Source: Alphaproteobacteria bacterium (GTDB lineage: Bacteria; Pseudomonadota; Alphaproteobacteria; CACIAM-22H2). From it: DNA of 64,000 bases. Made by a program: the position numbers and the translations under genes. Location: positions 260 to 64,259 of the forward strand of contig DATIBC010000041.1 in NCBI GenBank assembly GCA_035457725.1, in the 5' to 3' direction. Shown one piece after another: positions 2,126 through 27,632 of this stretch (positions are counted from its first letter, which is position 1; each line of letters opens with the position of its first letter). The notes under the pieces were generated by a model that was given only the letters and a program-made list of their open reading frames with translations, did not search any database and was not told where the DNA came from.

Positions 2126-3451
2126 TCAGTTCGCGACACGATACAGCTGCCAATCGTCGGGAACGCCTTTGAGGGCATGAACGCCGAAATCGTCGAACGC
2201 GATTCCAGACCCGGCGACGAGATCCTTGACGGTGCGCGAGACGACGATGCCGTCGGCGGGCGCCAGCGCCGAAATTCGCGCCGCGATGTGAAGCGCCAGT
2301 CCCGTCACCGCCTCGCCGCGCATTTCGTATTCGCCGGTATGCAGGCCGAGACGAATGCTGAGCCCCAATTCGTGCACCGACGCTCGCACGGCGTCGGCGC
2401 ACTGAATGGCGCGCGCTGGCCCGTCGAATATGGCGACGAACCCGTCGCCGGCGGTGCCGATCTCGCGGCCGCGAAATCGCATCAGCTCGGCGCGAACCGC
2501 GGCGTGATGCGCGTTGAGCAAATCGGTCCAGCGCTGGTCGCCGCGCTCGATGGCCAGCCTGGTCGAATCGACGATGTCGGTAAAAAGAATCGTGCCCAGC
2601 ACGCGATCGCTCGCCGTCACCGGCCGCACGCCGGTGAGAAACTCCTGCACGTTTTGCACGATCGTGTCGGCGCCGACGCAGAACGGCAGGTGATCGTCCG
2701 AATCGTAGACGACGAGTTTGGCCCCAGCGATATTTCCGGCCAAATAGCGGCCATTCTCGACCGACGTCGTGCGATCGCCCTCAGCATGGAGGATCAGCGT
2801 CGGCACGCGGATCGACGGCAGAACATGACGAATGTCGATCTCCAAATTCGCCCTGGTCAGGGCGAGCGCGGCGCTCGGACTCGCGCTTTGACGCAAGAAC
2901 CTCGCCCACCATTGCCGGAAGCGCGGGTCGTTGACCGTCGAGGGCGCCCGGATATCGAGACCGACGGCGGTGCCCCACTCGTGCTCGATCGAATGCAGGA
3001 AGGCATCGATGAAACGTTGGTCGACGCCCGCGGGGTAGTCGGGCACCCTGGTGCGGCGCGCATAGCTGCCGACCATGATCAAGGCGGTGACGCGCTCGGG
3101 GTACGTCGCGGCGAACAGCGCACACATCGGGCCGCCCTCCGAGTATCCGAGGAGCGCCGCGCGTTTCGAGCCGACCGCGTCCATGACCGCGCGTACGTCG
3201 TCCATGCGCTGCTCCAAAGTCGAGACGTCGGTCACCCGGTCCGAGAGTCCGGTCCCGCGCTTGTCGAACAGGATGAGCCGCGAGAACTCGGCGAGGCGCG
3301 TGTAGAAGCGCGCCACATTCGGTTCCTCCCAGAACACCTCGACATTCGAAAGCCAGCCGGGCGCCACCACCAGATCGATCGGACCTTTGCCGACCGCCTG
3401 ATAGGCGATGTTGATCCCGTCGCTGCTCGCGTATCGCGTCTCGGGCGTCAT
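2126..3451 (-). CDS. class III adenylate/guanylate cyclase with N-terminal alpha/beta-hydrolase domain
   Basis: C-terminal cyclase core (ILFTDIVDST, GDGFVAIFDG, GLHTGE). N-terminal alpha/beta hydrolase with GYSEGG nucleophile elbow. Start may instead be 3550. Confidence 0.7.
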   Translation of the reverse strand: MTPETRYASSDGINIAYQAVGKGPIDLVVAPGWLSNVEVFWEEPNVARFYTRLAEFSRLILFDKRGTGLSDRVTDVSTLEQRMDDVRAVMDAVGSKRAALLGYSEGGPMCALFAATYPERVTALIMVGSYARRTRVPDYPAGVDQRFIDAFLHSIEHEWGTAVGLDIRAPSTVNDPRFRQWWARFLRQSASPSAALALTRANLEIDIRHVLPSIRVPTLILHAEGDRTTSVENGRYLAGNIAGAKLVVYDSDDHLPFCVGADTIVQNVQEFLTGVRPVTASDRVLGTILFTDIVDSTRLAIERGDQRWTDLLNAHHAAVRAELMRFRGREIGTAGDGFVAIFDGPARAIQCADAVRASVHELGLSIRLGLHTGEYEMRGEAVTGLALHIAARISALAPADGIVVSRTVKDLVAGSGIAFDDFGVHALKGVPDDWQLYRVAN

Positions 3452-3835
3452 CCGCCAAGACCAATCGAAGCGCCGCGGTTGCGCGGCGGCGGCGTGGACG
3501 ATCCCAAGCCGCGGGATCGCAAGGCTAGACAATTCGCCCGGCTGACTCAACGTCGCCCCGCGGGTTCGATGGTTGCCGCCACAAGCATGCGCGCGCGGGC
3601 TGTCTGGGATTGCTGCGTGCGACTATGATCGGGCGGGGCGGCGAATCGGGAGGACCACCATGGCGAACATCCAAGGCAGACCCCAGCGCAGCGCCCGACG
3701 CTGTTCGCGCGAAGCGGAGCGCGCTTCGCGCATCGATGTTAGCGTGTCGCCCGCCAATCAAGACGTGAAGCGCGGATGGCGGGCAAACTTCAGGCAACTC
3801 GGCACGATCGGCCAGAAACACGGGAGCACGAACGA

Positions 3836-4642: not shown

Positions 4643-5620
4643 ATGAACGATACGACGCCACACCCGCCTGCCCAGCAACCTGTTTCCGGTCTGGTGACCC
4701 CGCGTTTTTCGGGCATACCGACATTCATGCGCTTGCCATTCGCCAGCGACCCCACGACGGTCGACGTGGCGCTTGTCGGCGTGCCGTGGGACGGCGGGAC
4801 GACCAATCGTCCAGGCGCCCGACATGGCCCGCGTGAGATCCGCAATCAGTCGAGCCTGATCCGCCGCGTCCATCCGACCACGCGCGTGTCGCCGTTCACG
4901 CTTGCCCGCTGCGCCGACCTGGGCGATGCCCCGGTCAACCCGGTCGATCTCCTGGACACGCTGTCGCGCATCGAACAGTTCTTCGCCAAGCTGCACGAAG
5001 CCGGAGCGGCGCCGCTCTCGGCGGGCGGCGATCATCTGGTGACGTTGCCGATCTTTCGCGCGATCGCCGGCAAGCGAAAACTGGGCATGGTGCATTTCGA
5101 CGCCCATTCCGACACCTGGGACCGCTACTTCGGCGATTATCGCTACACGCATGGCACGCCGTTTCGCCGCGCAATCGAGGAAGGACTGCTCGATCCTAGA
5201 CGGACGATCCAGATCGGCATCCGCGGCTCGCTCTACTCGCAAGACGACAACGATTGGGCGCTCGCCCAGGGCATCCGCGTGGTCACGATCGAGGAATATT
5301 TCGCGCTCGGGCCGGAGAAGGTGATCGCCGAGGCGCGGCGCATCGTCGGCGATGCTCCGTCCTACATCAGCTTCGACGTCGATGGCCTCGACCCCGTCTA
5401 CGCGCCAGGCACGGGAACGCCGGAGATCGGCGGTTACTCGACGTTCGATGCCCAGCTCATGGTGCGCGGCTTGCGTGGACTCGACATCGTCGGAGGCGAC
5501 GTGGTCGAAGTTTCGCCGCCGCTCGATCCCAGCGGCAACACCGCGCTGGTCGGCGCGACGATGATGTTCGAAATTCTCTGCGTGCTCGCCGAGGCGATCG
5601 CCCGGCGCAAGCGCCGCTGA
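4643..5620 (+). CDS. agmatinase-family ureohydrolase (arginase superfamily)
   Basis: Mn-binding motifs of arginase/agmatinase (GVPWDGG, HFDAHSDT, SFDVDGLDP, GGY). Exact substrate not assignable (agmatine, guanidinobutyrate or other). Confidence 0.75.
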   Translation: MNDTTPHPPAQQPVSGLVTPRFSGIPTFMRLPFASDPTTVDVALVGVPWDGGTTNRPGARHGPREIRNQSSLIRRVHPTTRVSPFTLARCADLGDAPVNPVDLLDTLSRIEQFFAKLHEAGAAPLSAGGDHLVTLPIFRAIAGKRKLGMVHFDAHSDTWDRYFGDYRYTHGTPFRRAIEEGLLDPRRTIQIGIRGSLYSQDDNDWALAQGIRVVTIEEYFALGPEKVIAEARRIVGDAPSYISFDVDGLDPVYAPGTGTPEIGGYSTFDAQLMVRGLRGLDIVGGDVVEVSPPLDPSGNTALVGATMMFEILCVLAEAIARRKRR

Positions 5621-5631
5621 CCCTCGACGAC

Positions 5632-6774
5632 ATGGACGAAGACGCTTCGCGCGCGCGTGCGTGGTGTCGCGCCGCGCGTGCCGAGGGGATCTGGGTCGCC
5701 GAGCTCGGCGGCCGCTGGATCCTTGCCAACGTGGTCGAGCTCGAGCATGACGTCGCGGCCCTGGCGCCCGACGCCGGCGCCGCGGTGCGAATCGACCTTG
5801 GCGGCGTCGAAGCGCTGGATACGGCCGGAGCTTGGCTGATCTATCGCTTGGCGCGACGGCTGGCCAACGTTCCGCACAAGGTCGAAATTTCCGGCGCCAC
5901 CGACGCCCAGACGGCGCTGCTCGAGCGCATGGCGCCCAAGGAGGGTCGCCGCCCGCTCATGCGGCCCTACAATCCGCTGCGCGACATGCTCGAGCGCGTC
6001 GGCGAGGTGACGATCAACGTCCTCAGCCGCGCGCGCGATCTCGTCTCCTTCTTCGGCCTGACGGCAATCGTCTTCGTCCGCGCGGCCCTGCGGCCGCGGC
6101 GGTTGCGCTTCGTATCGCTCTTGAGCCATCTCGAGCGCGTCGGTCTCAATGCGCTCCCGATCGTCGGATTGCTATCGTTTTTGATCGGGGTCGTCCTCGC
6201 TTATCAGGGGGCCGATCAGCTCCGGCAGTTTGGCGCCGAGATCTATACCGTCAATCTCCTCGGCGTGTCGGTGCTGCGCGAAATCGGCATCTTGATGACC
6301 GCGATCCTCGTTGCCGGCCGTTCGGGCAGCGCGTTCACAGCCGAGATCGGCATGATGAAGGTCAACGAGGAAGTCGCCGCCATGCAGACGATCGGCGTCG
6401 ACCCGATGGAAGTCTTGGTCCTGCCGCGCGTGCTGGCGACGGTGATCGCGCTGCCGCTTCTCTGCTTTTACGCCAATATGATGGCGCTCCTCGGTGGCGC
6501 GATCATGTCCTATTTCGCGCTCGGCATCGGCGTCGAGCAATTTCTCGTCCGGCTCAAGGACGCGATCACCGTGTCGACGCTTTGGGTGGGCATGGTCAAG
6601 GCGCCCTTCTTCGCGTTTCTGATCGGCATGGTCGGCTGCTACGAAGGGCTCAAGGTCGAGGGCAGCGCCGAAAGCGTCGGCCGGCTGACGACCAAGGCGG
6701 TGGTCGAGGCGATTTTCCTGGTCATCGTCGCCGACGCCGGGTTTTCAATCCTTTTTTCGTACCTGGGCATCTGA
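5632..6774 (+). CDS. MlaE-family ABC transporter permease with N-terminal STAS-like domain
   Basis: C-terminal ~260 aa MlaE/Ttg2B permease fold. N-terminal ~120 aa anti-sigma-antagonist-like domain. Start at the Met just after the agmatinase stop. Confidence 0.7.
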   Translation: MDEDASRARAWCRAARAEGIWVAELGGRWILANVVELEHDVAALAPDAGAAVRIDLGGVEALDTAGAWLIYRLARRLANVPHKVEISGATDAQTALLERMAPKEGRRPLMRPYNPLRDMLERVGEVTINVLSRARDLVSFFGLTAIVFVRAALRPRRLRFVSLLSHLERVGLNALPIVGLLSFLIGVVLAYQGADQLRQFGAEIYTVNLLGVSVLREIGILMTAILVAGRSGSAFTAEIGMMKVNEEVAAMQTIGVDPMEVLVLPRVLATVIALPLLCFYANMMALLGGAIMSYFALGIGVEQFLVRLKDAITVSTLWVGMVKAPFFAFLIGMVGCYEGLKVEGSAESVGRLTTKAVVEAIFLVIVADAGFSILFSYLGI

Positions 6775-6777
6775 ACG

Positions 6778-7569
6778 ATGGCCGATGCTGGTCCGAGATC
6801 GCCGATCATCCGCCTCAAGGGAATCGTCACGCGCTTCGGCAGCAACGTGATCCACGACGGCCTCGATCTCGACATCAGGCGCGGCGAAATACTCGCGGTC
6901 GTCGGCGGGTCGGGAACCGGCAAGTCGGTGCTTTTGCGCACCATCATCGGCCTGCGCCAGCCCGATGGCGGCACCATCGAGATTCTCGGACAAGACACCG
7001 CGCGGCTCGACGACCGCGGCCGCGCGGCCCTGCGCAGACGATGGGGCGTGTTGTTCCAAGGCGGCGCGCTCTTCAGCTCGCTAACCGTGGCGCAGAACAT
7101 CCGCGTCCCGTTCAAGGAGCACACCAAGCTGCCGGCCAAGCTGGCGGGCGATCTGATTCGCATCAAGATCCAGATCGTCGGCCTGCCCGCCGAGGCCGGC
7201 GCGAAGTTTCCCTCGGAGCTTTCGGGGGGCATGGTCAAGCGCGCCGGATTGGCCCGCGCGCTGGCGCTCGATCCGGAAATCCTTTTCCTCGACGAGCCGA
7301 CGGCCGGCCTCGATCCGATCGCCGCCTCGGCCTTCGACCAGCTCATCCGCGACCTGCAGCGGAGCCTCGGCCTTACCGTGGTGATGATCACCCACGACCT
7401 CGACACGCTCGCCGCCATCGCCGACCGCATTGCGGTTCTCGTCGATCGCCGTGTTAAAGTCGGTACCATGGACGAGTTGCTGGCCGACCCGCATCCTTGG
7501 ATCCACGATTACTTCGCCGGCCCGCGGGGACGGGCCGCGGCCCGAGCGCACGACGTCGAGGCGCGATAG
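6778..7569 (+). CDS. ABC transporter ATP-binding protein (MlaF-like)
   Basis: Walker A GGSGTGKS, signature LSGGM, Walker B ILFLDEPTAGLDP. Confidence 0.8.
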   Translation: MADAGPRSPIIRLKGIVTRFGSNVIHDGLDLDIRRGEILAVVGGSGTGKSVLLRTIIGLRQPDGGTIEILGQDTARLDDRGRAALRRRWGVLFQGGALFSSLTVAQNIRVPFKEHTKLPAKLAGDLIRIKIQIVGLPAEAGAKFPSELSGGMVKRAGLARALALDPEILFLDEPTAGLDPIAASAFDQLIRDLQRSLGLTVVMITHDLDTLAAIADRIAVLVDRRVKVGTMDELLADPHPWIHDYFAGPRGRAAARAHDVEAR

Positions 7570-7572
7570 GCC

Positions 7573-8568
7573 ATGGAGACGCGCGCCAGCTACATACTCG
7601 TTGGAACATTCGTTCTTTCGCTCATCGCCGGGCTGTTCGCCTTCGTGCTGTGGCTCGCCAAGGTCGAATTGAAGGACGAGCGCGTCTATTACTACATCTA
7701 CTTTCCCGGCTCGGTCAGCGGATTGCAGGTCGGCGCGCCGGTGCAGTTTCGCGGCGTGCCGGTGGGCACGGTCACCAGCATCGACATCGACGCCGAGAAC
7801 GTGGAGCTGATCGAGGTGACGGTGGCGCTGAGGGCGGGCACGCCGGTCAAGACCGATTCCGTCGCATCGCTCCAGGCCCAGGGGATCACCGGCCTGAGCT
7901 TCATCCAGCTCTCCGGCGGAACGCAGGGCGCCGAGCCGCTCACTCCCCGGCCAGGCAAGCGCCGCGCGGTCATACCTTCGACTCCCTCGACGCTCGAGAA
8001 ATTCTTCGAGAGCGCGCCGGACTTGATCGCGCGCATCGGCGAGGTGGCGGTGCGCGTCGCGACACTGCTCAGCGACGAAAATATCCGGCATATCGATTCA
8101 ATCATCGACAACCTCGACCGTTCCTCAGCGGCGCTGGCCGTTTCGATGCTCGAAGTGCCGAGAACCATCGACGGTGCGCAAGCCGCGATCGCCGACGCCC
8201 GCGGCTTGATCAGAGATCTTCGCGGAAGCACCGCGAAGCTCGACGCGCTGATGGCCGATTTGCGAGGCTTAGCGCAACGCGTTGGCGGCAACGTCGATCG
8301 CCTGGGCGCGAGCGGCGATCGAACGCTGAACGAGATCGGCGTCACGGTGCAGTCGTTGCAGCGGACCGCGGCGGAGATTGAAAAACTCGTCGCCGATACC
8401 CGAACGCCGCTGCGCGATTTCTCGCAGACCGGTCTATACGAGCTGAACCAGTTTCTGGCCGAGGCGCGGGTCTTGATCGCCGCCTTGACCCGTATCGCCG
8501 CCAACCTCGAGCGCGATCCGGCGCGCTATCTCTTCGGCGATCAACAGAAAGGCTTCGAAGCCAAATGA
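7573..8568 (+). CDS. MlaD-family MCE-domain substrate-binding protein
   Basis: N-terminal TM followed by an MCE domain (YYYIYFPGSVSGLQVGAPVQFRGVPVG), then long coiled-coil tail. Confidence 0.75.
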   Translation: METRASYILVGTFVLSLIAGLFAFVLWLAKVELKDERVYYYIYFPGSVSGLQVGAPVQFRGVPVGTVTSIDIDAENVELIEVTVALRAGTPVKTDSVASLQAQGITGLSFIQLSGGTQGAEPLTPRPGKRRAVIPSTPSTLEKFFESAPDLIARIGEVAVRVATLLSDENIRHIDSIIDNLDRSSAALAVSMLEVPRTIDGAQAAIADARGLIRDLRGSTAKLDALMADLRGLAQRVGGNVDRLGASGDRTLNEIGVTVQSLQRTAAEIEKLVADTRTPLRDFSQTGLYELNQFLAEARVLIAALTRIAANLERDPARYLFGDQQKGFEAK

Positions 8569-9209
8569 TGTCGCGTCGCCCCGTGCTCAAGCAGGCGCTC
8601 GCCCTGGCGTCGATGACGGCGCTGGCCGGCTGCCAAATCCCCGGCGCCGGCGATCCGCCGCAACTCTTTACGCTAACCCCAAAGAGCGCCTTCGCCGCCG
8701 ATCTTCCGACGGTCGAGTGGCAGCTCATCGTCGAGACGCCTGTCGCCGCCGCGGGCCTCAGCACGAGCCGCATCGCGCTTCAGCGCTCGCCGCTCGAGCT
8801 CGACTATTACGCCCGCGCCAATTGGACGGATACGGCGCCGCTGATGGTGCAAACGCTGCTGATCGAGTCGTTCGAGAACAGCAAGCGCATCGTCGCGGTC
8901 AGCCGCGAATCGACGAATTTGCGCGCCGATTACGTCCTCAAGACCGACTTGCGGGAGTTTCAGGCGCAATACGACGGCGCCGGTCCGCCGCTGGTCCACG
9001 TTCGCCTCAGCGGCAAGTTGGTGCGGCTGCCGGATCGGACGATCATCGCCAGCAAAAGCTCGGAGTTGTCGCTTCGCGCCGCCGGCGGCGACATGCAGAG
9101 CATCGTCGGAGCGTTCGACGAGGCGCTCGGCAAGGTCTTGCGCGAGCACGTCGAATGGACGTTGCGCGCCCCGGCCACGACCCGTCGCCATCAAGCCGCC
9201 TCCGGCTGA
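8565..9209 (+). CDS. ABC-type transport auxiliary lipoprotein (DUF330/PqiC-like)
   Basis: Lipobox LAGC after signal peptide. 4-nt overlap with the preceding MCE gene. Typical fourth gene of Mla/MCE operons. Confidence 0.6.
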   Translation: MMSRRPVLKQALALASMTALAGCQIPGAGDPPQLFTLTPKSAFAADLPTVEWQLIVETPVAAAGLSTSRIALQRSPLELDYYARANWTDTAPLMVQTLLIESFENSKRIVAVSRESTNLRADYVLKTDLREFQAQYDGAGPPLVHVRLSGKLVRLPDRTIIASKSSELSLRAAGGDMQSIVGAFDEALGKVLREHVEWTLRAPATTRRHQAASG

Positions 9210-9214
9210 GCGAT

Positions 9215-10249
9215 TCAATAGAAGCTGTCGAAGTGGATCCGCTCCGCGGGCACGCCGCGGCGGCGCAACATGGCGACGCTTGCCTCGACCATTGGCGGAG
9301 GTCCGGCGACGAAGATCTCCGCGGTCGCAAGGACCGCCCCGCCGGCCCGCTCGACGGCCTCGTGCACCATGCCGCGTGCCCCCGGCCAAATCTCGGGTCC
9401 GATGTCCTCGACATTCGACAAGACGACGCGGTAATCGATCGCGGCCTGCGGGGCGGGATCGAAGCAACGGCCAAGATCGACGATGTCCGCCGGGCGGCGT
9501 CCGCCATAGAACAACGTTGCCATCCTGGCGCTTGGGTCTTGGCGTCGTAGCACCGCGCGGAGAATCGACACCATCGGCGATAGGCCTGAGCCGCCGGCGA
9601 TGCAAAGCACCGGCGCGGCGGTCCCGGGCGCAAGAAACGCGTGCCCATAGGGCGCGTCGAGGACGACCGGCATGCCGACATAGGGCGCCTCAAATAACGC
9701 CCGGCCCGCCAATCCGCCTTGCTTGCGCTTTACGATGAACTGCCAAACCCCCGCGGAATTGGCGAGGTTGGCCATCGAGTATGCGCGCCAGCCCGGGACA
9801 TTGGGCAGCGCCAGCAACGCGTATTGTCCGGGCAGGAATTCGGCGACGCCGCCAGCGTGCAGCTCGAATTCCCAAATATCGTGGGTCAAGACGCGCCAAC
9901 GCTCGAGGCGCGCGGCGCGTCGGACGGGGGCTATCGGCGGCTTGCGTGCAGGCTCGAGGCGGACGGCTATCGTCGCCGGCCCCAGCGGAGTCGCCTGGCA
10001 TCCGAGCATGCGATTGCGTTGCCGGTCGCGTTCGCTCCACGCCGGGGCCTCGCGCCACGCCATGTCGAAAGCGCCATCGCGTATCTCAAAGCGGCAGGTA
10101 CCGCACGAGCCGGTGCCGCACTCGTAAGGAAACGGCAGCCCGGCACGGAGCGCCGCCCGCAGCACCGGCTCGTCGGGCGCGCACGAAAACGTCGGTCCGC
10201 CGGCGATCGCGACCACGAAGCCGCCACCGGGCGGCGGCATCTCATTCAA
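9215..10249 (-). CDS. carAd: ferredoxin-NAD(P)H reductase component of Rieske dioxygenase (CarAd-like; plant-type 2Fe-2S plus FAD/NAD domains)
   Basis: N-terminal C-x4-C-x2-C...C ferredoxin (YECGTGSCGTCRFEI) followed by FNR-type flavin and NAD domains. Last gene of the car-like operon. Confidence 0.7.
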   Translation of the reverse strand: MNEMPPPGGGFVVAIAGGPTFSCAPDEPVLRAALRAGLPFPYECGTGSCGTCRFEIRDGAFDMAWREAPAWSERDRQRNRMLGCQATPLGPATIAVRLEPARKPPIAPVRRAARLERWRVLTHDIWEFELHAGGVAEFLPGQYALLALPNVPGWRAYSMANLANSAGVWQFIVKRKQGGLAGRALFEAPYVGMPVVLDAPYGHAFLAPGTAAPVLCIAGGSGLSPMVSILRAVLRRQDPSARMATLFYGGRRPADIVDLGRCFDPAPQAAIDYRVVLSNVEDIGPEIWPGARGMVHEAVERAGGAVLATAEIFVAGPPPMVEASVAMLRRRGVPAERIHFDSFY

Positions 10250-10988
10250 GGCCGAAGACGCGATCGAGACGCATGGCGATCCGAATGTCTCCGCGCAGCC
10301 GCAGCTTTCCCGTCATCAGCGCGAATTTCGGATTGAGCTGCTTGTCGATGATCTTCTCGAAGTTCTCGCGGCTGACCGTTATGGTGATCGTCGAATCCTT
10401 GTCTTCGTTGCTCACCGAATTCGGTTTCGCGAGGCCGTCGACATAGATGATTCCAACCTCGGGAAAGACGAACTTCACCGTCGCATCGAGTCCCGAATCC
10501 GCTCCCACCGATGTGCGGACTCGTTCGGTCAATTCCTGCAACGTCATATCGCTGTTCCTCCCGGGGCTAGTGCCGTGCTCCGTCGCATGGGATTCGATCG
10601 GCCGCGATGGCGCCCGCGCCGCGCGCGCGATCCACACCTTTCCGTCGCGCACCGTGGCGGCGTAGGTGCGCAGGGCCACGGTGCAAGGCGCCGCCGCCGG
10701 CTCTCCGGTGCGTAGGTTGAACGCGCCCGCGTGCCATGGGCATTCGATGATTTCGCCGTCAAGCGTGCCCTCGCTCAGCGACGCCATGCCATGCGTGCAA
10801 GTATCGTCAACGACGTAAAAGGCGCCGCCGGCGTTGAATACGGCGAGCGCCGGCATGCCAGCCACGACGCATTTGCGCCCCGATCCGGGCGCGATGTCGC
10901 CGGTCGCGCACAAGGCGATCAACTCGGAATCAGTCGCGCAACCGTTGGCGCGGCCTTCGGACGCAGAATGCGATGCAAGCGACTCCAT
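10242..10988 (-). CDS. carAc: Rieske [2Fe-2S] ferredoxin (CarAc-like) continuing in-frame into a C-terminal SCP2 sterol-carrier domain
   Basis: Rieske motifs CTHGMASL...CPWHAGAF. Start ATG overlaps the stop of the upstream hydrolase (ATGA). No stop codon before an SCP2-like ~100 aa segment (internal ATG at ~10547 with a GGGAGGA RBS). Confidence 0.65.
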   Translation of the reverse strand: MESLASHSASEGRANGCATDSELIALCATGDIAPGSGRKCVVAGMPALAVFNAGGAFYVVDDTCTHGMASLSEGTLDGEIIECPWHAGAFNLRTGEPAAAPCTVALRTYAATVRDGKVWIARAARAPSRPIESHATEHGTSPGRNSDMTLQELTERVRTSVGADSGLDATVKFVFPEVGIIYVDGLAKPNSVSNEDKDSTITITVSRENFEKIIDKQLNPKFALMTGKLRLRGDIRIAMRLDRVFGLE

Positions 10989-11812
10989 CAGTCGTGCGCG
11001 TTGCGTATGAAGTTCAAGGTCGCCGACGCGAAGTCGCGCGGGTGCTCGAGCATCGCCCAATGGCCGCAATCGGGAATGAAGTAAGCCCAAGATTTCGGGA
11101 TCAGATCGAGCATCCGCATCGCGTCCGAAAGCGGCACCACCTTGTCTTGTTTGCCGTTGATCACCAACGTCGGCGCCTGGACGCGTCGAATGAAGTCCTC
11201 TTCGTAGTAGAGGCCGCCTTGTTGACGCACCCAGCCCATGATATCGCCATACGCGCGGCGCGCATCGGCATCGAGCGCGTTGGTGAAGCGATAATCCACC
11301 ATCTTGTCGTCGATCTTGAACCGCTCGGTGCACAAGACCCGCATCAGCGCGATCATTCCCTCGCGGGTGAAATCGTAATTGATAAGGGGCTTGAGCGAGG
11401 GCGGTAGATGACGCGTGACCCCAGCGCTGCCCATGAGGACGAGGCGTCCCACGATCTCCGGCCGCGACGACGCGACTCCGATCGAGGTGGCGCCGCCCAT
11501 CGAATTGCCGACCAGCGTCGCCCGACGAAGGCCCAACGCTTCCAAGAAGCCCGCGAGATGCTCGTTTCGCGCTTGCTGCGAATAAACGTACTTCTCCGGG
11601 TCGGGCTTGTCGGTCTTGCCGAAGCCGACCATGTCGACGGCGATGACACGTGCTTCCGCCGCGAGCATGGGAATCGTCTCGACCCAATTCGAGTAACCGT
11701 CCGCGCCGGCGCCGCCGCCGTGAACGAGTACGATGGGATCGCCGCTTCCCTCGTCGACGTAGTGCGTTCGAATACCCGCCACATCGATAAACCTACTTTG
11801 CCACGACCTCAT
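10988..11812 (-). CDS. carC: meta-cleavage compound hydrolase (CarC/BphD/MhpC family alpha/beta hydrolase)
   Basis: HGGG oxyanion motif, GNSMGG nucleophile elbow, C-terminal His. Sits directly downstream of the extradiol dioxygenase genes. Confidence 0.8.
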   Translation of the reverse strand: MRSWQSRFIDVAGIRTHYVDEGSGDPIVLVHGGGAGADGYSNWVETIPMLAAEARVIAVDMVGFGKTDKPDPEKYVYSQQARNEHLAGFLEALGLRRATLVGNSMGGATSIGVASSRPEIVGRLVLMGSAGVTRHLPPSLKPLINYDFTREGMIALMRVLCTERFKIDDKMVDYRFTNALDADARRAYGDIMGWVRQQGGLYYEEDFIRRVQAPTLVINGKQDKVVPLSDAMRMLDLIPKSWAYFIPDCGHWAMLEHPRDFASATLNFIRNAHD

Positions 11813-11867: not shown

Positions 11868-12677
11868 CTAGGCGGCCAGCGCAATACCCCCTACGCCGGT
11901 GAGCCACTGCGGAATGGGTTCGTAGTAGATCTGTTCGCCTGTCCGTCCAGGCAACGTCGCCGCGGCCATGAGCCAGGTGACGATCTCCATGCCCCCGTTC
12001 CCCGACTGCTCGACGATCTCGCCGGGGCTCAGCGACGTCAGTTCTTCCGCCCGGCCGGCGACGATCTTGTCGATGACCATTCGGTCGAACGTCTCGTTTA
12101 CGCGCCCCATGCCGGGTATGTTGACCCAGTGCGACAGGCCGCCTGTCCCCATGACGACGACGCGCTCGTCGGTGGGACGGTGGCGTTCGATCGTCTCGCG
12201 CAGCACTCCGCCCAGCGCATAGCATCGGCCCGGCCTGGGCAATGGCGTCATGTTGATGTTCACGATCAACGGAAGCACCGGCGTCTTGCCGTCCGGATTG
12301 GCGAACATCAACGGCAACGCGACGCCGTGATCGGGGTCGAGTTCCTCGACTTTAGCCAGATCGAAACCGCGCTCCGCCGCGATCTCCACCAAGCTCTCGC
12401 CCAGCGCCCGCGATCCGCGGAAAGGCCGTCGCGGCACTCCCATCTCGCCGAACGGCGTATATGCGTCGGCGACGCCGACCGTGAACGGCGGCTGCAGGGA
12501 AAGATTTATGTTGTACATATGCTCGCTGCTGATCACCACGATCGCATCGGGGGCGAGCGCACGAACGCGCGCGCCGATCTCCCGCAGCCCCTGGAACGCG
12601 CGCTCGGCGCGCTCCTCGACGCCTTGCGGCGAAAAGAGGATGTGCGAGGTAGCGAACGCGCCTACGACCTTACCCAT
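11868..12677 (-). CDS. carBb: class III extradiol dioxygenase catalytic subunit (LigB family; CarBb-like)
   Basis: LigB-type fold and length (269 aa). Paired with the small LigA-like subunit upstream. Confidence 0.75.
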   Translation of the reverse strand: MGKVVGAFATSHILFSPQGVEERAERAFQGLREIGARVRALAPDAIVVISSEHMYNINLSLQPPFTVGVADAYTPFGEMGVPRRPFRGSRALGESLVEIAAERGFDLAKVEELDPDHGVALPLMFANPDGKTPVLPLIVNINMTPLPRPGRCYALGGVLRETIERHRPTDERVVVMGTGGLSHWVNIPGMGRVNETFDRMVIDKIVAGRAEELTSLSPGEIVEQSGNGGMEIVTWLMAAATLPGRTGEQIYYEPIPQWLTGVGGIALAA

Positions 12678-12678
12678 T

Positions 12679-12954
12679 TCATCGCTCCTCGAGCCGGCGC
12701 GTGAATGCGCTCATGTTGATCAGGTCCGCCATTTGCGGGTTCATCGCCATCATCAGATGAACTTGCAGGATCGGGTGGAGCCCGATCGCCGCGAGCGCGG
12801 CCGGATCGCCCGCCGCAAGCGCCCGGGCTTCGTCGCTCGATAGCCCGTGATCGCGGAAAACCGATTCGGGCTCGCTGCGCAACCGGACGACCAGCGCCGG
12901 GTCGCGGCACAATCGCTGCACCAATCGGTTAGCGTTGCTCGATCGATACTGCAT
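12679..12954 (-). CDS. carBa: extradiol dioxygenase small subunit (LigA-like; CarBa-like)
   Basis: 91 aa, LigA/CarBa-like, immediately upstream of the LigB-type subunit with a 1-nt gap. Confidence 0.65.
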   Translation of the reverse strand: MQYRSSNANRLVQRLCRDPALVVRLRSEPESVFRDHGLSSDEARALAAGDPAALAAIGLHPILQVHLMMAMNPQMADLINMSAFTRRLEER

Positions 12955-13030: not shown

Positions 13031-14203
13031 CTAGATCGTGTGTTCCGGCTTTTGGATTCCGCGATTGCGTCGGCTGGCGAGCTTGCGCCATTCGACGATC
13101 GCCAGATCCGGCTCATAAAGCCGCTCCTCGACCCAACCGACGTCGCCGGCATAAAATGCCTCTCCCGCTTCGCGCGCCCAAACATCGTCATCGTTAAACC
13201 CGTCGAGCGCTAGCGACGACAGCCGCTCGTTGAACTCCTTGTCGAACGCCTTCTCGGCCTCAGGGCCATCGACACGGCGTCCCAGCGTTTGCAGGTAATA
13301 ATGGCTGCCGGCGTCGCGCGAGACGTACCATTCGAATTGGATCGTGTCTTCCTGCGGCCAGGGATCGACCTTGAGCACGCCGGGCAGCCAGATCGAAATG
13401 TTGTTGGCGACTTTCGTCGCGCCAAAGTGCCCCTCGGCGACCTTTTCATCGCCGAGATAGCTTTCGAACACCGGCATCGACAGGTCGCCCAGGAGATCGT
13501 AGACGCCGCTGCGTCCTTCGCTCTCCTCCACCGTGCGGAACGTCTCGACGCCCTCGGGCGGCGCGAAACCGACCGGAAGCGCTAGGTCGTTGCCTGTGAC
13601 GAGCGGCGATTTCTTGTGGATCCAGATATGTCCGGAATCGAACCCGTTCTCGACGCCAAGCCGCCAGTTGGCGTTGACCTGGCGCACCTTGCCGCGGATC
13701 GCCATGTCGGCGTCGAGAAAATCTGGCGGCACGTCGGTCCAAAGCGGCGGCGCCGTGATATCGCCGACGAAAACGAAGACGATCCCTTTCGCTTCCTCGA
13801 CCGGATAGGTCTTGATCCGATGCTTGCCGATCTGCGTGCTCATCGGGTTGGTCAGGATGCCGATCAGTTCGCCGGTGAGCCAGCTATACGTCCAGCCGTG
13901 GTACCAGCAGGTGATGGTGTCGTTGCGAAAACATTCGAGCTTGGCCGAAAAATTTACCCCGCGATGCAGGCAACGGTCCTTCATCGCGTAGACCTTGCCG
14001 TCGATGCGTTTCAACAACAGGTTCTCTCCAAGCAGGCGCAGCGGCCGTATTTCGCCCTCCGCCACGTCGCGGGAAAACACCGTCGGATACCAGTGATTGC
14101 GAAATCCGAGCTTCGCTTCCACGTAGCCGCGCCACCCTTTGACTCTCTCGAGCACCTTGGGGTCCACCGTGGCGTTTACCGGCGGCGCAAACTGCGTCGA
14201 CAT
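13031..14203 (-). CDS. carAa: Rieske non-heme-iron angular dioxygenase terminal oxygenase (carbazole 1,9a-dioxygenase CarAa-like)
   Basis: Rieske CLHRG...CWYHGW. Many blocks recalled from CarAa (RVKGW..Y..AKLGFRNHWYP, NWRL.VENGFD, SIWLPGVLKV, FEWYV, NDDD.WAREA, WRKLAS). ~390 aa as in CarAa. Start at the internal Met with a GGGAGA RBS; upstream ORF portion rejected. Confidence 0.75.
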   Translation of the reverse strand: MSTQFAPPVNATVDPKVLERVKGWRGYVEAKLGFRNHWYPTVFSRDVAEGEIRPLRLLGENLLLKRIDGKVYAMKDRCLHRGVNFSAKLECFRNDTITCWYHGWTYSWLTGELIGILTNPMSTQIGKHRIKTYPVEEAKGIVFVFVGDITAPPLWTDVPPDFLDADMAIRGKVRQVNANWRLGVENGFDSGHIWIHKKSPLVTGNDLALPVGFAPPEGVETFRTVEESEGRSGVYDLLGDLSMPVFESYLGDEKVAEGHFGATKVANNISIWLPGVLKVDPWPQEDTIQFEWYVSRDAGSHYYLQTLGRRVDGPEAEKAFDKEFNERLSSLALDGFNDDDVWAREAGEAFYAGDVGWVEERLYEPDLAIVEWRKLASRRNRGIQKPEHTI

Positions 14204-14256: not shown

Positions 14257-14475
14257 GATATTGCCCGAGAGTCAAGATCGATACGGCTCTCCGACCCAAG
14301 CTCGACTTCGGACCCGGTGAGGTCCTTGGATGCCAAATTTTGCGCCCGGCATGGCGTCTTTCACCAAGCTTCCTATGGCCCCCTTGTTGTAATATATTGT
14401 CCTGCAATCCAGCCCACGGCGCGGTAATTGCTCTATCTTCGGATTTATCGCGGCGTAAGATCGCAGCGGGTGACC

Positions 14476-15150
14476 ATGGAAAAGAACAAGACGGGCGGCG
14501 CGAAGACGGTCGTCGAGGCAACCATCGAGGCAATCAAGAGCGGAATATTCGAGGGCCGCTATGCGCCCGGTCAACGCCTCATCGAGGCTGACCTGACGCG
14601 GGAACTAAGCGTGAGTCGCGGTCCGCTGCGCGAGGCGCTAGGCCGGTTGGTGGCCGACGGCTTGGTCGAAATTGAGCCCTATCGTGGGGCAATCGTCGCG
14701 CGGCCGTCGCGCGAGGACGTCGCCAACACGCTGCAACTTCGCGAAGTCCTCGAGGGCCTGGCGGCGCGGCTAGCGGCCGAGCGAATCGAAATTGGCGACA
14801 ATCGCAAACGTCTCGTGGCCGAGCGGGACGCAATCGCCAAGAGCGACGCCGGCCTCGAGGTGGCGACGTTCATGAGCGACAATGAGCGCTTCCACGGGCT
14901 GATACTCAAGCTGTCGGGCAACTCGCAACTGGCCCGTCTGGTATCGCAGATGCAACTGCCGACGCTTCAGACGGCTTTTTTCCGGACGATCGACCAGAAA
15001 GTACGTTCGAATTCGCTCGCCCAGCACCGGGAAATCCTGAACGCGATCCTGGCCGGCGATGGCGGCGCGGCGGAGCGCGCGATGCGGACGCACATCGCGC
15101 GCACCAGCGAACTTGCCAAGCGGCTTCCGGACGCTTTATTCGGAGCGTGA
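14476..15150 (+). CDS. GntR-family (FadR/FCD subfamily) transcriptional regulator, divergent from the car-like operon (CarR-like)
   Basis: N-terminal winged HTH (RLIEADLTRELSVSRGPLREAL), C-terminal FCD domain. Position matches CarR of known car loci. Confidence 0.75.
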   Translation: MEKNKTGGAKTVVEATIEAIKSGIFEGRYAPGQRLIEADLTRELSVSRGPLREALGRLVADGLVEIEPYRGAIVARPSREDVANTLQLREVLEGLAARLAAERIEIGDNRKRLVAERDAIAKSDAGLEVATFMSDNERFHGLILKLSGNSQLARLVSQMQLPTLQTAFFRTIDQKVRSNSLAQHREILNAILAGDGGAAERAMRTHIARTSELAKRLPDALFGA

Positions 15151-15172: not shown

Positions 15173-16174
15173 TCAAAAGCGAATCAACAAACGACCGATG
15201 ATTCGGTCGCCCTCGGGCCGGTTCTCGACTAGATAGTCCTTCTGGTACTTGAGTTCGACCACGGCGCCGATCGGGTGCTGGTATTGGACCTGCGGGCCGA
15301 TGCCGAGAGCGCGGCCGCGAAATCCGCCCAGAAACGGGACGTCATTCACCTCGTCGTCGCTGAATTGGTGATAGTAGTACCCACCGATGCCGACCAAGAT
15401 CTTGCCCCAGTTGAGCTCCCAGCGGTAACCAAAGGAGTAATCGACGAGTATCGCTTCGCCTGAATCGTAGTTGGTCTCCGGATTTTCGAAGTTGATGTCC
15501 AGCGTGATCTTGCTCGACACCTCGAAGCCGCCGTGAAGCCAAGTGAAGGCATAGGCCGGACTGAAGGTGAAATAACCTTGCCCGATGTTGACAAGGCGAC
15601 TTGCCTCGAACGACGCGGTCGGAAAAGTAACATCGAAGCCGACGGCCTGATGGAAATTCGGCGAGTGCCACGCCAGGAGCTGGGTGATGGTGATATCCCC
15701 TACGCCGGTCTTCGATTGGCGGCCAAACGGCGGCTGGCTAAACGCCGCCGCAAGCCCGGCGGCCACCGGCGGCGGCAGCCCAGGAGGAATCGGCGGCGGT
15801 GGATTCTTGATCGAAACGCGCACCACCGGAACGATTAATTGCGTGAGCCAATCGGCGCCGAGCACCTTGAGCCCCGGGTTATAAAGAAAGCGCGCCGCGT
15901 AGGCCTGCGTCTCTAGCTTGAAATTCGGGAAGAGCGGGTCGCCGCTCGAGTTGTTGAAGCGATCGGCGTCGATGAAAATGAACTCATTGGCTAGATACAG
16001 ACCTTCGGGCGGCAGATTGCCGACGCCGATGCCGTTAAGGCCGTTGGGAAACGGATTGCGTCCGGATTCCGTCGCCATGACTGCGCCGCTTGCCAGAAAC
16101 ATTCCGCCGAGCGCCAAGGCTATCGACGTCCGCCATCCGATGGTCGTTTTCCCACCTGTCGACCCAGCCGCCAT
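15173..16174 (-). CDS. outer-membrane transporter of the meta-pathway phenol-degradation (MetA) family
   Basis: Signal peptide, beta-barrel-like alternating pattern, C-terminal aromatic residue. Pro-rich insert NPPPPIPPGLPPP. Confidence 0.6.
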   Translation of the reverse strand: MAAGSTGGKTTIGWRTSIALALGGMFLASGAVMATESGRNPFPNGLNGIGVGNLPPEGLYLANEFIFIDADRFNNSSGDPLFPNFKLETQAYAARFLYNPGLKVLGADWLTQLIVPVVRVSIKNPPPPIPPGLPPPVAAGLAAAFSQPPFGRQSKTGVGDITITQLLAWHSPNFHQAVGFDVTFPTASFEASRLVNIGQGYFTFSPAYAFTWLHGGFEVSSKITLDINFENPETNYDSGEAILVDYSFGYRWELNWGKILVGIGGYYYHQFSDDEVNDVPFLGGFRGRALGIGPQVQYQHPIGAVVELKYQKDYLVENRPEGDRIIGRLLIRF

Positions 16175-19898: not shown

Positions 19899-21587
19899 TC
19901 AAGCGGCCACGGCGTCGGCGAGAAGCGCGCGCAACGCGGCGGGATCGACATCGCGAGCGACGAAAGCCTCGCCGATCCCGCGCGCCAGGATGAATATGGC
20001 GGCGCCTCCCCGCGCTTTCTTGTCGTGCGCCATCGACGCGATCAGCGAATTGGCGTCCAGTCGGCCCAAATCGGCTCTCGCCAGCGCCGTTGGCAGCCCG
20101 ACCGCCTCGAGATGCCTGCGAACGCGTTCGGCGTCCCCGGTCGCGCACAGCCCTAGCCGCGCTGAAAGCTCGAACGCCAGCGTTATCCCGATCGCCACCG
20201 CCTCGCCATGCAGCAGCGCCTCGCCAAATCCGGTCGCTGCTTCGAGCGCATGGCCAAACGTATGGCCGAGATTGAGCAACGCCCGCCGACCAGCCTCGCG
20301 CTCGTCGGCGGCGACGATCCGCGCCTTGGCGCGGACTGAGCGCGCCACCGCGAAGGACTGCGCCGCCGAATCGCCGGCCAGCACGCGCGATCCGTTGGCT
20401 TCGAGCCAGGCAAAGAAATCGGCGTCGTCGATGAGTCCATACTTGACGATCTCGGCATAGCCAGCGCGAAGCTCGCGCGCAGATAGCGTCTTGAGCGCGT
20501 CGAGGTCGGCGACGACCATTCTCGGCTGGTGAAACGCGCCGACGAGATTCTTGCCATGGCGCGTGTTGATGCCCGTTTTGCCGCCGACCGAACTGTCGAC
20601 CTGGGCGAGCAGCGTCGTCGGTGCCTGGACATAATCGATTCCGCGCAGCACGAGACTCGCGGCGAATCCGGTGAGGTCGCCGACCACTCCGCCGCCGAGC
20701 GCCATCAGCATGGCGCCGCGATCGGGCTTCAAATCGAGGACGCGCTCGACCAGCGACTGGAGGTGAGCGAAGTCCTTGGCGCCCTCGCCCGGCGCCACTT
20801 CGATCAATTGCGCGGCGACGCCGGCGGCATCGAGCCCGAATTTGGCGCGCGGCCATTGCGTCCGCGCGACGTTGACGTCACTGACGACGATGAGCCGTCG
20901 TTCGCGCAGTAGCGGCAGAACGAGTTGGCCTACGCGGTCGAGCAATCCGGCGCCGATATGAACATCGTAACCGCGCGCCCCTAGCTCGACCCGCACTTGC
21001 GTTACGTTCTCGATCCTGGCCTCGCCGGCAAGATAGCGCCGCAGCGCCTCGGCGACGCGCTCGACGGTCGCCTCGGGCGGTCCATCGACACTTTCGACCC
21101 GAATATCGGCCTGCGCATATATGGGATTGCGCTCGGCCATCAATCGCGACAGAACTTCGCGCGGATCGCCCCGCTTCAGCAGCGGTCGGTTGTTTCGCCG
21201 CGCCACGCGACGCAACAGCAAATCGAGATCGGCGTCGAGCCACACCGAAATGCCGCGCGCCTTGATCTTGGCGCGCGTTTCCGGATCGATGAACGCGCCG
21301 CCGCCGGTCGAAAGCACCTGCGTTGGCGCGTCGAGGAGCCGTTGAACGATCTTTCGCTCGCCCTCGCGGAATGCTTGTTCGCCGAGCGTGTCGAAAATTT
21401 CTTCGACCGACCGGCCGGCCGCCGCCTCGATCTCGTGATCGGCGTCGGTGAATGGCACTCCCAGTCGCTGTGCCAGTCGCCGGCCGATCGCGCTCTTGCC
21501 GGCTCCCATCAGCCCGACGAAGACGATGGTGCGCGGAACGGCGGGCGCGACCGGATCGGCCGGCGTATCCGAATTAGATCGCGCCAT
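19899..21587 (-). CDS. aroKB: bifunctional shikimate kinase / 3-dehydroquinate synthase (AroK-AroB in a single ORF)
   Basis: N-terminal P-loop shikimate kinase (GLMGAGKSAIG). After ~190 aa the full AroB sequence follows with no intervening stop. Confidence 0.75.
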   Translation of the reverse strand: MARSNSDTPADPVAPAVPRTIVFVGLMGAGKSAIGRRLAQRLGVPFTDADHEIEAAAGRSVEEIFDTLGEQAFREGERKIVQRLLDAPTQVLSTGGGAFIDPETRAKIKARGISVWLDADLDLLLRRVARRNNRPLLKRGDPREVLSRLMAERNPIYAQADIRVESVDGPPEATVERVAEALRRYLAGEARIENVTQVRVELGARGYDVHIGAGLLDRVGQLVLPLLRERRLIVVSDVNVARTQWPRAKFGLDAAGVAAQLIEVAPGEGAKDFAHLQSLVERVLDLKPDRGAMLMALGGGVVGDLTGFAASLVLRGIDYVQAPTTLLAQVDSSVGGKTGINTRHGKNLVGAFHQPRMVVADLDALKTLSARELRAGYAEIVKYGLIDDADFFAWLEANGSRVLAGDSAAQSFAVARSVRAKARIVAADEREAGRRALLNLGHTFGHALEAATGFGEALLHGEAVAIGITLAFELSARLGLCATGDAERVRRHLEAVGLPTALARADLGRLDANSLIASMAHDKKARGGAAIFILARGIGEAFVARDVDPAALRALLADAVAA

Positions 21588-21920
21588 GCGTCAGCCGAAC
21601 AAGGCGGCGCGTCGCCTCGCGCGGCTCCGGCGTTGGCGCGTATGCGGCGCTGCGTGGACCGTGGATTGATCGTCTCGATGCGAGCCGATAGACTGCCTCA
21701 GAACTGCCATGTTTGAAATGTAACAGAATCTCACGCCCCTGTCGCGTCCGCTACTGGCATGAAAATGTTTCGTTTCTCCAGATTCTCGGGATCCAAAAGT
21801 TGACGCGACTTCTGGTGTTGATTATCGCGCTGGTCGTGGCCGTGGCGGTCGGTGGCGCGGCGTTTCTCGCCCTGACCGATATTCCTGCGCCGACCCAACG
21901 AATCGAAAAGGTGGTGCCGA

Positions 21921-27545: not shown

Positions 27546-27632
27546 GCGCCCACGACGCGCGGTTTTCTCCCATCGCGTGGACTTCTGGCGCCGAGCGATC
27601 GTACCTTTACCGTCGAAGCACCTCCAAGGCGT

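Follow-up and report, generated by a model that had tools for sequence, protein, structure and literature searches.

The carbazole-type degradation (car) operon in a 64,000-nucleotide stretch of DNA from an uncultured alphaproteobacterium (GenBank assembly GCA_035457725.1, contig DATIBC010000041.1, positions 260 to 64,259 of the forward strand; below, the window) contains a gene, carAc::ORF7, that encodes both the Rieske ferredoxin of an angular dioxygenase and an SCP2 sterol carrier domain. Comparison with related operons identifies this gene as a genuine in-frame fusion, the product of a single inherited event that joined two genes that are separate in most relatives, namely, the ferredoxin gene carAc and the small gene ORF7. 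The fused gene also retains what appear to be the translation signals of ORF7, so that two products are probable. We put the probability at about 55% that the SCP2 domain is a carrier of hydrophobic ligands that serves the dioxygenase and is tethered to its ferredoxin, a reading that draws largely on analogy with other SCP2 proteins.

A CarAc-type ferredoxin and ORF7 share one reading frame

The operon in the window is complete, with the gene order carAa-Ba-Bb-C-(Ac::ORF7)-Ad, and is collinear with the car operon of strain CA10 (plasmid pCAR1, NC_004444.1), the pCAR1 proteins matching at 39 to 61% identity in tblastn searches. Judged by its genes, it is a CA10-type car operon that encodes a carbazole-1,9a-dioxygenase (CARDO)-like class III three-component angular dioxygenase. 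The fused open reading frame (ORF) extends from an ATG at 10988-10986 to a TGA at 10244-10242 and is translated without an internal stop into a protein of 248 amino acids (aa), which exceeds the norm of ∼105 to 115 aa for the single-domain ferredoxins of the CarAc type. At its upstream end, the TGA of carC overlaps the ATG of the fused ORF (TGATG); at its downstream end, the ATG of carAd (10240) begins 1 nt past the fused-gene stop. A promoter and terminator scan of the operon placed none inside the fused gene.

Both halves of the protein score above the Pfam gathering thresholds. The Rieske domain (PF00355) was detected at residues 24 to 109 (E = 3.7e-16; 59 bits versus a cutoff of 20.3), and the SCP2 domain (PF02036) was detected at residues 193 to 245 (E = 1e-9; 39 to 41.5 bits versus a cutoff of 21.3), the score of 41.5 bits being obtained when the C-terminal 101 aa were scanned alone. 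The SCP2 part also gave a weak match to the Pfam family Alkyl_sulf_C. The N-terminal half is 52% identical to CarAc of CA10 (WP_011077882.1), possesses the CxH...CxxH ligand motif of Rieske clusters (C64-T-H66 and C83-P-W-H86), and has CarAc itself as its best solved relative (1VCK; E = 9e-33). The C-terminal half has its best plasmid-database match in pCAR1 ORF7 (WP_011077883.1; 61% identity over 98 residues), an SCP2 sterol-binding protein by annotation, whose gene separates carAc from carAd. On this evidence of sequence, the gene is carAc::ORF7. The original prediction, made from the DNA alone, had described a stop-free frame leading from a CarAc-like ferredoxin into an SCP2 domain and had pointed to the small ORF at this position in known car operons as the counterpart of the latter, all of which is borne out by these comparisons.

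The overall architecture thus stood, and some of its details did not. The gene lies on the minus strand, and the ferredoxin is preceded by a 23-aa N-terminal extension that is common to the window and two other fused loci, L003 and L017, and is absent from two more, L059 and L004. A linker is indeed present between the domains, but it comprises 27 aa (ARAARAPSRPIESHATEHGTSPGRNSD), not 25, and is rich in Ala, Arg, and Ser with some Pro, not strictly in Pro, Ser, and Gly. In CA10, by comparison, a gap of 33 nt separates carAc from ORF7, and the ferredoxin carries neither a C-terminal tail nor the N-terminal extra residues, whereas in the window the two are joined in one ORF by the linker.

The fusion arose once and has been inherited

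The in-frame fusion was found in eight distinct sequences (64 to 92% identical) that come from at least 11 independent assemblies produced by different groups and by different methods. The fused loci include that in the window, L003 (an Alphaproteobacteria metagenome-assembled genome [MAG]), L004 (an Acetobacteraceae MAG), L017, L059/L060, L061, P0001, and the truncated contigs L062 to L064; fused homologs P0001 to P0006 were recovered in a database search. The DNA of L059 is identical to that of L060, although the former belongs to a Joint Genome Institute assembly and the latter to an assembly derived from the Sequence Read Archive. Such reproduction of the junction across many independent assemblies argues that it is not a sequencing artifact, and the possibility of an error at the junction that had accompanied the original prediction can be set aside: the frame is open.

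In a tree built from the ferredoxin and SCP2 parts, the six complete fused genes group together as one monophyletic, alphaproteobacterial clade (94 of 100 bootstraps), whose sister group includes an unfused locus, L023, in which the two genes share an ATGA overlap. In L023 and the other unfused loci with this overlap that are nearest in SCP2 sequence (L022, L025, and L065/L066), the ferredoxin carries a C-terminal tail of ∼20 residues, and the stop codon of the tail is the TGA of ATGA. For L065/L066, identity in the SCP2 part is ∼80%. Given this arrangement, a net change of one base in the frame of the ferredoxin tail would fuse the two genes and leave the stop codon itself untouched. The tree suggests that such a frame change occurred once, in one alphaproteobacterial lineage, and that the fusion then persisted; by this comparison, it is a genuine and single inherited event.

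Several other database entries were evaluated and rejected. Proteins P0007 to P0009 were considered as further fused members, but their Rieske or SCP2 parts are scrambled, as is typical of frameshifted contigs. Conversely, two proteins of 101 aa, P0158 and P0159 (94% and 88% identical, respectively), were considered as unfused relatives; their contigs break off 19 to 169 nt upstream, with the in-phase frame remaining open as far as the break, which indicates that they are truncated fused genes for which the gene caller began at the internal ATG. Within the fused clade, carAa of L059 (3409-4599) was called as two ORFs of 237 and 148 aa, the result of either an assembly frameshift or a pseudogene.

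The ancestral start site of ORF7 is retained inside the fused gene

The SCP2 part of the fused gene is preceded by a Shine-Dalgarno (SD)-like motif and an ATG, GGGAGG-N9-ATG, which is the same site as the GGGAGGAAC-N6-ATG from which the original prediction had concluded that this part could also be translated alone. From the alignment with the separate ORF7 homologs (Table 1), this ATG (Met148) corresponds to the codon at which translation of ORF7 began when it was still a gene of its own. The GGGAGG motif occurs only 9 times in 29 kb of coding DNA of the window, a rarity that argues against a chance match in its placement before the SCP2 ATG, and its codons are uncommon, GGG accounting for 14.8% of the Gly codons and AGG for 3.7% of the Arg codons in the window. 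In all six complete fused genes, among which the adjacent codons differ, a GGAG or GAGG core lies 6 to 9 nt before the ATG; the site reads GGGAGG-N9 in four of them, GAGAGG-N9 in one, and GGGAGC-N6 in one. Under a neutral model, such retention has a probability of ∼0.01. Furthermore, nearly all stand-alone ORF7 homologs carry an SD-like motif before their ATG. The start of the fused ORF, for its part, shows no SD motif in the subclade of the window and relies on the overlap with carC.

The potential for separate translation is therefore supported indirectly, by conservation, the motif and the ATG having been kept in every complete fused gene despite a drifting linker. Retention of the ancestral ribosome-binding site and start codon suggests that a free SCP2 protein is probably still translated beside the fused one, in which case the locus would yield the ferredoxin-SCP2 fusion (∼26 kDa) together with the SCP2 protein alone (∼11 kDa).

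Both domains are under purifying selection and are joined by a flexible linker

The ratio of nonsynonymous to synonymous substitution rates (dN/dS) was estimated by the Nei-Gojobori method from the six complete fused genes, which are separated by a dS of ∼0.8 to 1.0. The ratio is 0.27 for the Rieske domain, 0.91 for the linker, and 0.14 for the SCP2 domain; the low values indicate that both domains are functional, with a linker that drifts between them. In the codon alignment, the linker measures 27, 30, 31, or 33 codons, and such whole-codon lengths imply at least three frame-preserving insertions or deletions (indels), for which the probability is roughly 0.04 if the frame were irrelevant.

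The linker is predicted to be a disordered tether, 27 to 33 aa in length across the fused genes. In AlphaFold2 (AF2) models of the whole fusion, built from eight sequences, the predicted local distance difference test (pLDDT) score is 80 to 94 for the Rieske domain and falls below 50 at residues 125 to 146. The SCP2 domain was modeled alone from 63 ORF7 homologs (pLDDT, 90.4; predicted template modeling [TM] score, 0.83), and a Foldseek search with this model yielded 46 matches at an E value of ≤0.001, all 46 of which are SCP2 or SCP2-like proteins, with TM scores up to 0.77. The best of these include mosquito SCP2-like-2 (0.77) and rabbit and human SCP2 (0.73 to 0.74; 0.74 for rabbit SCP2, 1c44). 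At the sequence level, the nearest solved structures to ORF7 are also those of mammalian SCP2 (E, ∼3e-5), no close relative having been solved, and a profile of the 63 homologs matches human and rabbit SCP2 with an E value of 2.4e-7. Model and profile together identify ORF7 as an SCP2-fold protein.

ORF7 is a conserved member of CA10-type car operons

Two scans that covered genome and metagenome contigs detected ∼52 loci in which ferredoxin and SCP2 sequences adjoin, in every case inside a car-type operon. The two genes are separate in ∼48 of these ∼52 loci, where they either lie 6 to 84 nt apart or share the 4-base ATGA overlap. Homologs of ORF7 are present in every one of ∼50 related operons, with 56 to 72% identity to CA10 ORF7, a level of conservation that equals that of CarAa, and in nearly all operons the gene is located between carAc and carAd.

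Two loci depart from this arrangement. In L011 (4899-8324), from a Burkholderiaceae MAG, and in the matching metagenome contig L026 (2899-6324), the genes are ordered carAa-Ba-Bb-C-ORF7, and carC overlaps at its end with ORF7. A search of the whole 16-kb locus gave no match to a Rieske ferredoxin, and no reductase gene was found there, the three largest downstream ORFs encoding an HpcH-type aldolase, a radical SAM protein, and a UDG-family protein. The retention of ORF7 where neither a ferredoxin nor a reductase gene was detected suggests that ORF7 is tied to substrate handling and not to the ferredoxin alone. A different departure is seen in L065 (6468-7256) and L066 (1348-2136), the closest unfused relatives of the fused loci, where a second alpha/beta hydrolase gene follows ORF7 in place of carAd, and the operon lacks the reductase gene.

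The SCP2 domain was also found in other fusions among relatives of ORF7. For example, two MFS transporters, P0021 (584 aa) and P0042 (588 aa), possess a C-terminal SCP2 domain that is 46% and 42% identical, respectively, to that in the window, and tandem SCP2, SDR-SCP2, and acyl-CoA dehydrogenase-SCP2 proteins were detected as well. Among the 150 best cluster representatives, there were no reverse or other fusions of ORF7, such as to carAd. Distant SCP2 relatives on Phaeobacter and Paracoccus replicons are located in unrelated gene contexts.

SCP2 domains associated with other enzymes

The ubiquinone pathway offers a precedent for an SCP2 protein that assists hydroxylases. Within a multiprotein complex to which the Ubi hydroxylases belong, hydrophobic intermediates of ubiquinone are bound by the SCP2 domain of UbiJ; a like role has been proposed for UbiT in the O2-independent pathway, and in Zymomonas mobilis the ubiT and ubiU genes are fused (PMC6747719). 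There, as in the car operon, an SCP2 fold is encoded with a system that hydroxylates a hydrophobic aromatic compound and is joined, in occasional cases, to one of the components. The partners of UbiJ and UbiT are flavin or U32 hydroxylases, whereas the partner here is the Rieske ferredoxin of a catabolic dioxygenase; no ubi genes were found in the operon neighborhood among the annotated ORFs of the window. Structures of the UbiJ SCP2 domain (6h6n and 6h6o) align with the ORF7 model at TM scores of 0.55 to 0.61, but with only ∼15% sequence identity. Ligand binding has been shown for UbiJ, and the likeness of ORF7 to UbiJ and UbiT is one of mechanism by analogy, not of family membership.

A tethered SCP2 fold is also seen in the C-terminal domains of the alkylsulfatases SdsA1 and Pisa1 and in peroxisomal MFE-2, which align with the ORF7 model at TM scores of 0.62 to 0.70. 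The SCP2-like domains of these three proteins are thought to recruit hydrophobic substrate. In all of them, the carrier sits on the catalytic subunit with a packed interface, whereas in the fused protein it is attached to the electron transfer component by a long, disordered linker.

Possible functions of the fused SCP2 domain

The reading that we favor is that of a hydrophobic-ligand carrier tethered to the ferredoxin and serving the dioxygenase. The SCP2 domain would probably bind a poorly soluble ligand of the pathway, either the aromatic substrate or a labile dihydroxylated intermediate, and would pass it to or from the CarAa trimer; with the ferredoxin docking on CarAa at each turnover, a tethered carrier would be kept at the oxygenase. 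This reading is favored because no recovered CA10-type operon lacks ORF7, which matches CarAa in its degree of conservation; because MFS transporters, SDRs, and acyl-CoA dehydrogenases exist that bear a fused SCP2 domain of related sequence; because an outer membrane channel for aromatic compounds and an Mla/Mce-like ABC system flank the operon; because UbiJ and UbiT provide a precedent; and because L011 and L026 keep ORF7 with carAaBaBbC where neither a ferredoxin nor a reductase gene was found.

Several observations weigh against it. The Sphingomonas KA1-type car operons are not known to contain ORF7. The case for selection that maintains the fusion itself, beyond its two halves, is modest and draws on the frame-preserving indels and the persistence of the clade; the stop-free linker was rejected as proof of such selection, given that stop avoidance was nonsignificant (P = 0.2 to 0.4) in a neutral simulation on the tree scaled by four-fold-degenerate sites, a consequence of the linker containing only 7% T. 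In the AF2 models of the whole fusion, the SCP2 half is too poorly predicted for contacts between the domains to be judged. With respect to the second product, the Gly-Arg pair encoded by GGGAGG could in principle be conserved for protein-level reasons instead. Finally, E. coli equipped with carAa, carAc, and carAd only performs the CARDO reactions (PMC10992316), from which it follows that ORF7 is nonessential for catalysis in that host.

A stronger version of the carrier reading, to which we give a rather low likelihood, would make ORF7 an overlooked fourth component of CA10-type angular dioxygenases, a dedicated carrier of the hydrophobic substrate or of the labile diol that docks on the CarAa trimer and, being bound covalently to the ferredoxin in this lineage, delivers its ligand together with the electrons, with the internal start supplying extra free carrier. 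If this were true, ORF7 would be the first lipid transfer-type accessory protein described for a Rieske oxygenase system.

The same rather low likelihood attaches to the alternative that the fusion is a tolerated accident, in which a one-base change merged overlapping and translationally coupled genes, the working SCP2 protein is the free form produced via the internal ribosome-binding site, and the ferredoxin bears a harmless passenger on a flexible tail; the fusion would then be uninformative on a physical partnership between ORF7 and CarAc. This alternative accommodates the internal SD motif and ATG, which are conserved and apparently selected, the near-neutral linker with its nonsignificant stop avoidance, the separation of the two genes in most of the scanned operons, and the persistence of ORF7 in L011, a locus that yielded no ferredoxin gene. 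It is less easily reconciled with the survival of the fusion across the synonymous divergence given above and in eight distinct sequences with no reversion observed, or with linker indels that all preserve the frame. Moreover, the fused ORF is the only source of ferredoxin, so that every ferredoxin molecule bears an SCP2 domain.

Less likely still is a role of the SCP2 domain as a protein-protein adaptor that organizes the CarAd-CarAc-CarAa electron transfer chain, or as a tether that holds this chain at the inner membrane, where hydrophobic substrates partition. The usual position of ORF7 between carAc and carAd would fit such a role, as would the flanking lipid ABC system and outer membrane channel, and the SCP2 factor UbiJ also structures a multiprotein complex (PMC6747719). 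ORF7 is, in addition, unusually conserved for a simple lipid-binding fold and has many invariant charged residues (R9, K25, D37, D87, R89, and R93), but several of the invariant residues belong to the generic SCP2 motif and are seen in mammalian SCP2 too. Further points against such a role are the presence of ORF7 in L011 and L026, two loci that yielded neither carAc nor carAd, and the lack of any detected membrane-binding feature. A sequencing or assembly error, in the form of a missed stop or a frameshift at the junction, can be dismissed as highly improbable: some database relatives (P0007 to P0009) do resemble frameshifted contigs, but the junction is in frame in every one of the eight sequences, identical DNA was obtained from two unrelated samples, linker lengths differ by whole codons, and the GC content at third codon positions is 0.74 to 0.81 along the entire fused ORF.

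Implications for the angular dioxygenase system

The fusion of two genes is a classic indication that their products work jointly. ORF7 has stood unexplained in the best-studied operon for carbazole and dioxin degradation since 1997 and has been largely ignored, because in E. coli the three-component enzyme is active in its absence. As late as 2023, a review still counted one ORF without known function within the car fragment cloned from CA10 (PMC10992316). The parts of the fused protein are known, CarAc being structurally characterized and ORF7 catalogued; the fused Rieske-SCP2 architecture was not found in the literature searched, nor was anything on the function of ORF7 or on SCP2 domains in connection with Rieske proteins or carbazole, and in databases the architecture carries only automatic names. 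The fusion may thus be taken as a hint, the first of a genetic kind, that links ORF7 to the dioxygenase system, and it is a natural construct for testing that link. If the SCP2 domain delivers poorly soluble aromatics, the addition of SCP2, or of the natural fusion, could improve engineered degraders of dioxin and carbazole, and the idea of SCP2 proteins as helpers of hydroxylases, derived from UbiJ and UbiT, would extend to catabolic Rieske oxygenases.

The operon and its surroundings

The features of the fused gene, the operon, and the adjacent genes are listed in Table 1.

TABLE 1 Features of the carAc::ORF7 gene, the car operon, and flanking genes in the window
Feature	Position	Strand	Basis or remark
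Mla/Mce-like ABC system (MlaE permease with STAS, ABC ATPase, MlaD, ABC_trans_aux lipoprotein)	5254-9209	+	Converges on carAd
carAd, ferredoxin reductase (plant-type 2Fe-2S, flavin adenine dinucleotide [FAD], and nicotinamide adenine dinucleotide [NAD] domains)	9215..10240	-	Pfam Fer2, FAD_binding_6, NAD_binding_1; 40% to CA10 CarAd
carAc::ORF7, fused coding sequence	10242..10988	-	248 codons + TGA; translation without internal stop
SCP2 domain, residues 148-248 (101 aa), car-operon ORF7 ortholog	10245..10547	-	Pfam PF02036, pCAR1 ORF7 identity, AF2, Foldseek, dN/dS
Internal ATG, Met148	10545..10547	-	Aligns with start Met of ∼48 separate ORF7 homologs
Internal Shine-Dalgarno-like GGGAGG	10557..10562	-	9-nt spacer to SCP2 ATG
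Linker, residues 121-147	10548..10628	-	Predicted disorder (AF2 pLDDT), dN/dS
Rieske [2Fe-2S] ferredoxin domain, CarAc type, residues 24-120	10629..10919	-	Pfam PF00355, CA10 CarAc identity, PDB 1VCK, AF2
N-terminal extension, residues 1-23, variable	10920..10988	-	Relative to CA10 CarAc
carC, meta-cleavage product hydrolase, alpha/beta fold	10988..11812	-	Pfam and NCBIfam; 52% to CA10 CarC
carBb, LigB-type extradiol dioxygenase subunit	11868..12677	-	PF02900, E 5e-47; 48% to CA10 CarBb
carBa, meta-cleavage enzyme small subunit	12679..12954	-	40% to CA10 CarBa
carAa, homotrimeric Rieske angular dioxygenase (terminal oxygenase)	13031..14203	-	PF11723 and Rieske; 59% to CA10 CarAa; start ATG 14203
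GntR/FCD regulator, divergent	14428..15150	+	Annotation; similar arrangement in L059 and L065
Phenol_MetA_deg-family outer membrane channel	15173..16174	-	Also upstream of operon in L059 and P0162 contig

The car operon of CA10 is borne on an IncP-7 plasmid of Pseudomonas resinovorans, whereas that in the window is part of the chromosome of an uncultured alphaproteobacterium related to Rhodospirillales, with the housekeeping neighbors aroK/aroB, malate synthase, accA, and cobST. The AccA protein of this host is only ∼73% identical to those of Rhodospirillales and Stellaceae MAGs. Annotation of the ORFs at ∼2 to 37 kb of the window brought to light no anthranilate dioxygenase genes.

The divergent GntR/FCD gene is probably the regulator of the operon, and the Phenol_MetA_deg-family channel is a candidate uptake route for a hydrophobic aromatic compound. 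This pair of genes precedes the operon in the window, in L059, and in the P0162 contig. On the other side, the Mla/Mce-like system may be relevant to the traffic of hydrophobic compounds or may reflect merely conserved synteny; the ABC_trans_aux lipoprotein gene comes after carAd in the related contig L064 as well.

Other multidomain proteins are encoded farther from the operon. A single ORF of 563 aa (19899-21590, minus strand) combines shikimate kinase and 3-dehydroquinate synthase domains and is by appearance an AroK-AroB fusion. Finally, adenylate/guanylate cyclase domains are encoded at 2126-3622 (minus strand) and 27546-29399 (plus strand), the partner of the cyclase domain being an alpha/beta hydrolase in one protein and TPR repeats in the other.

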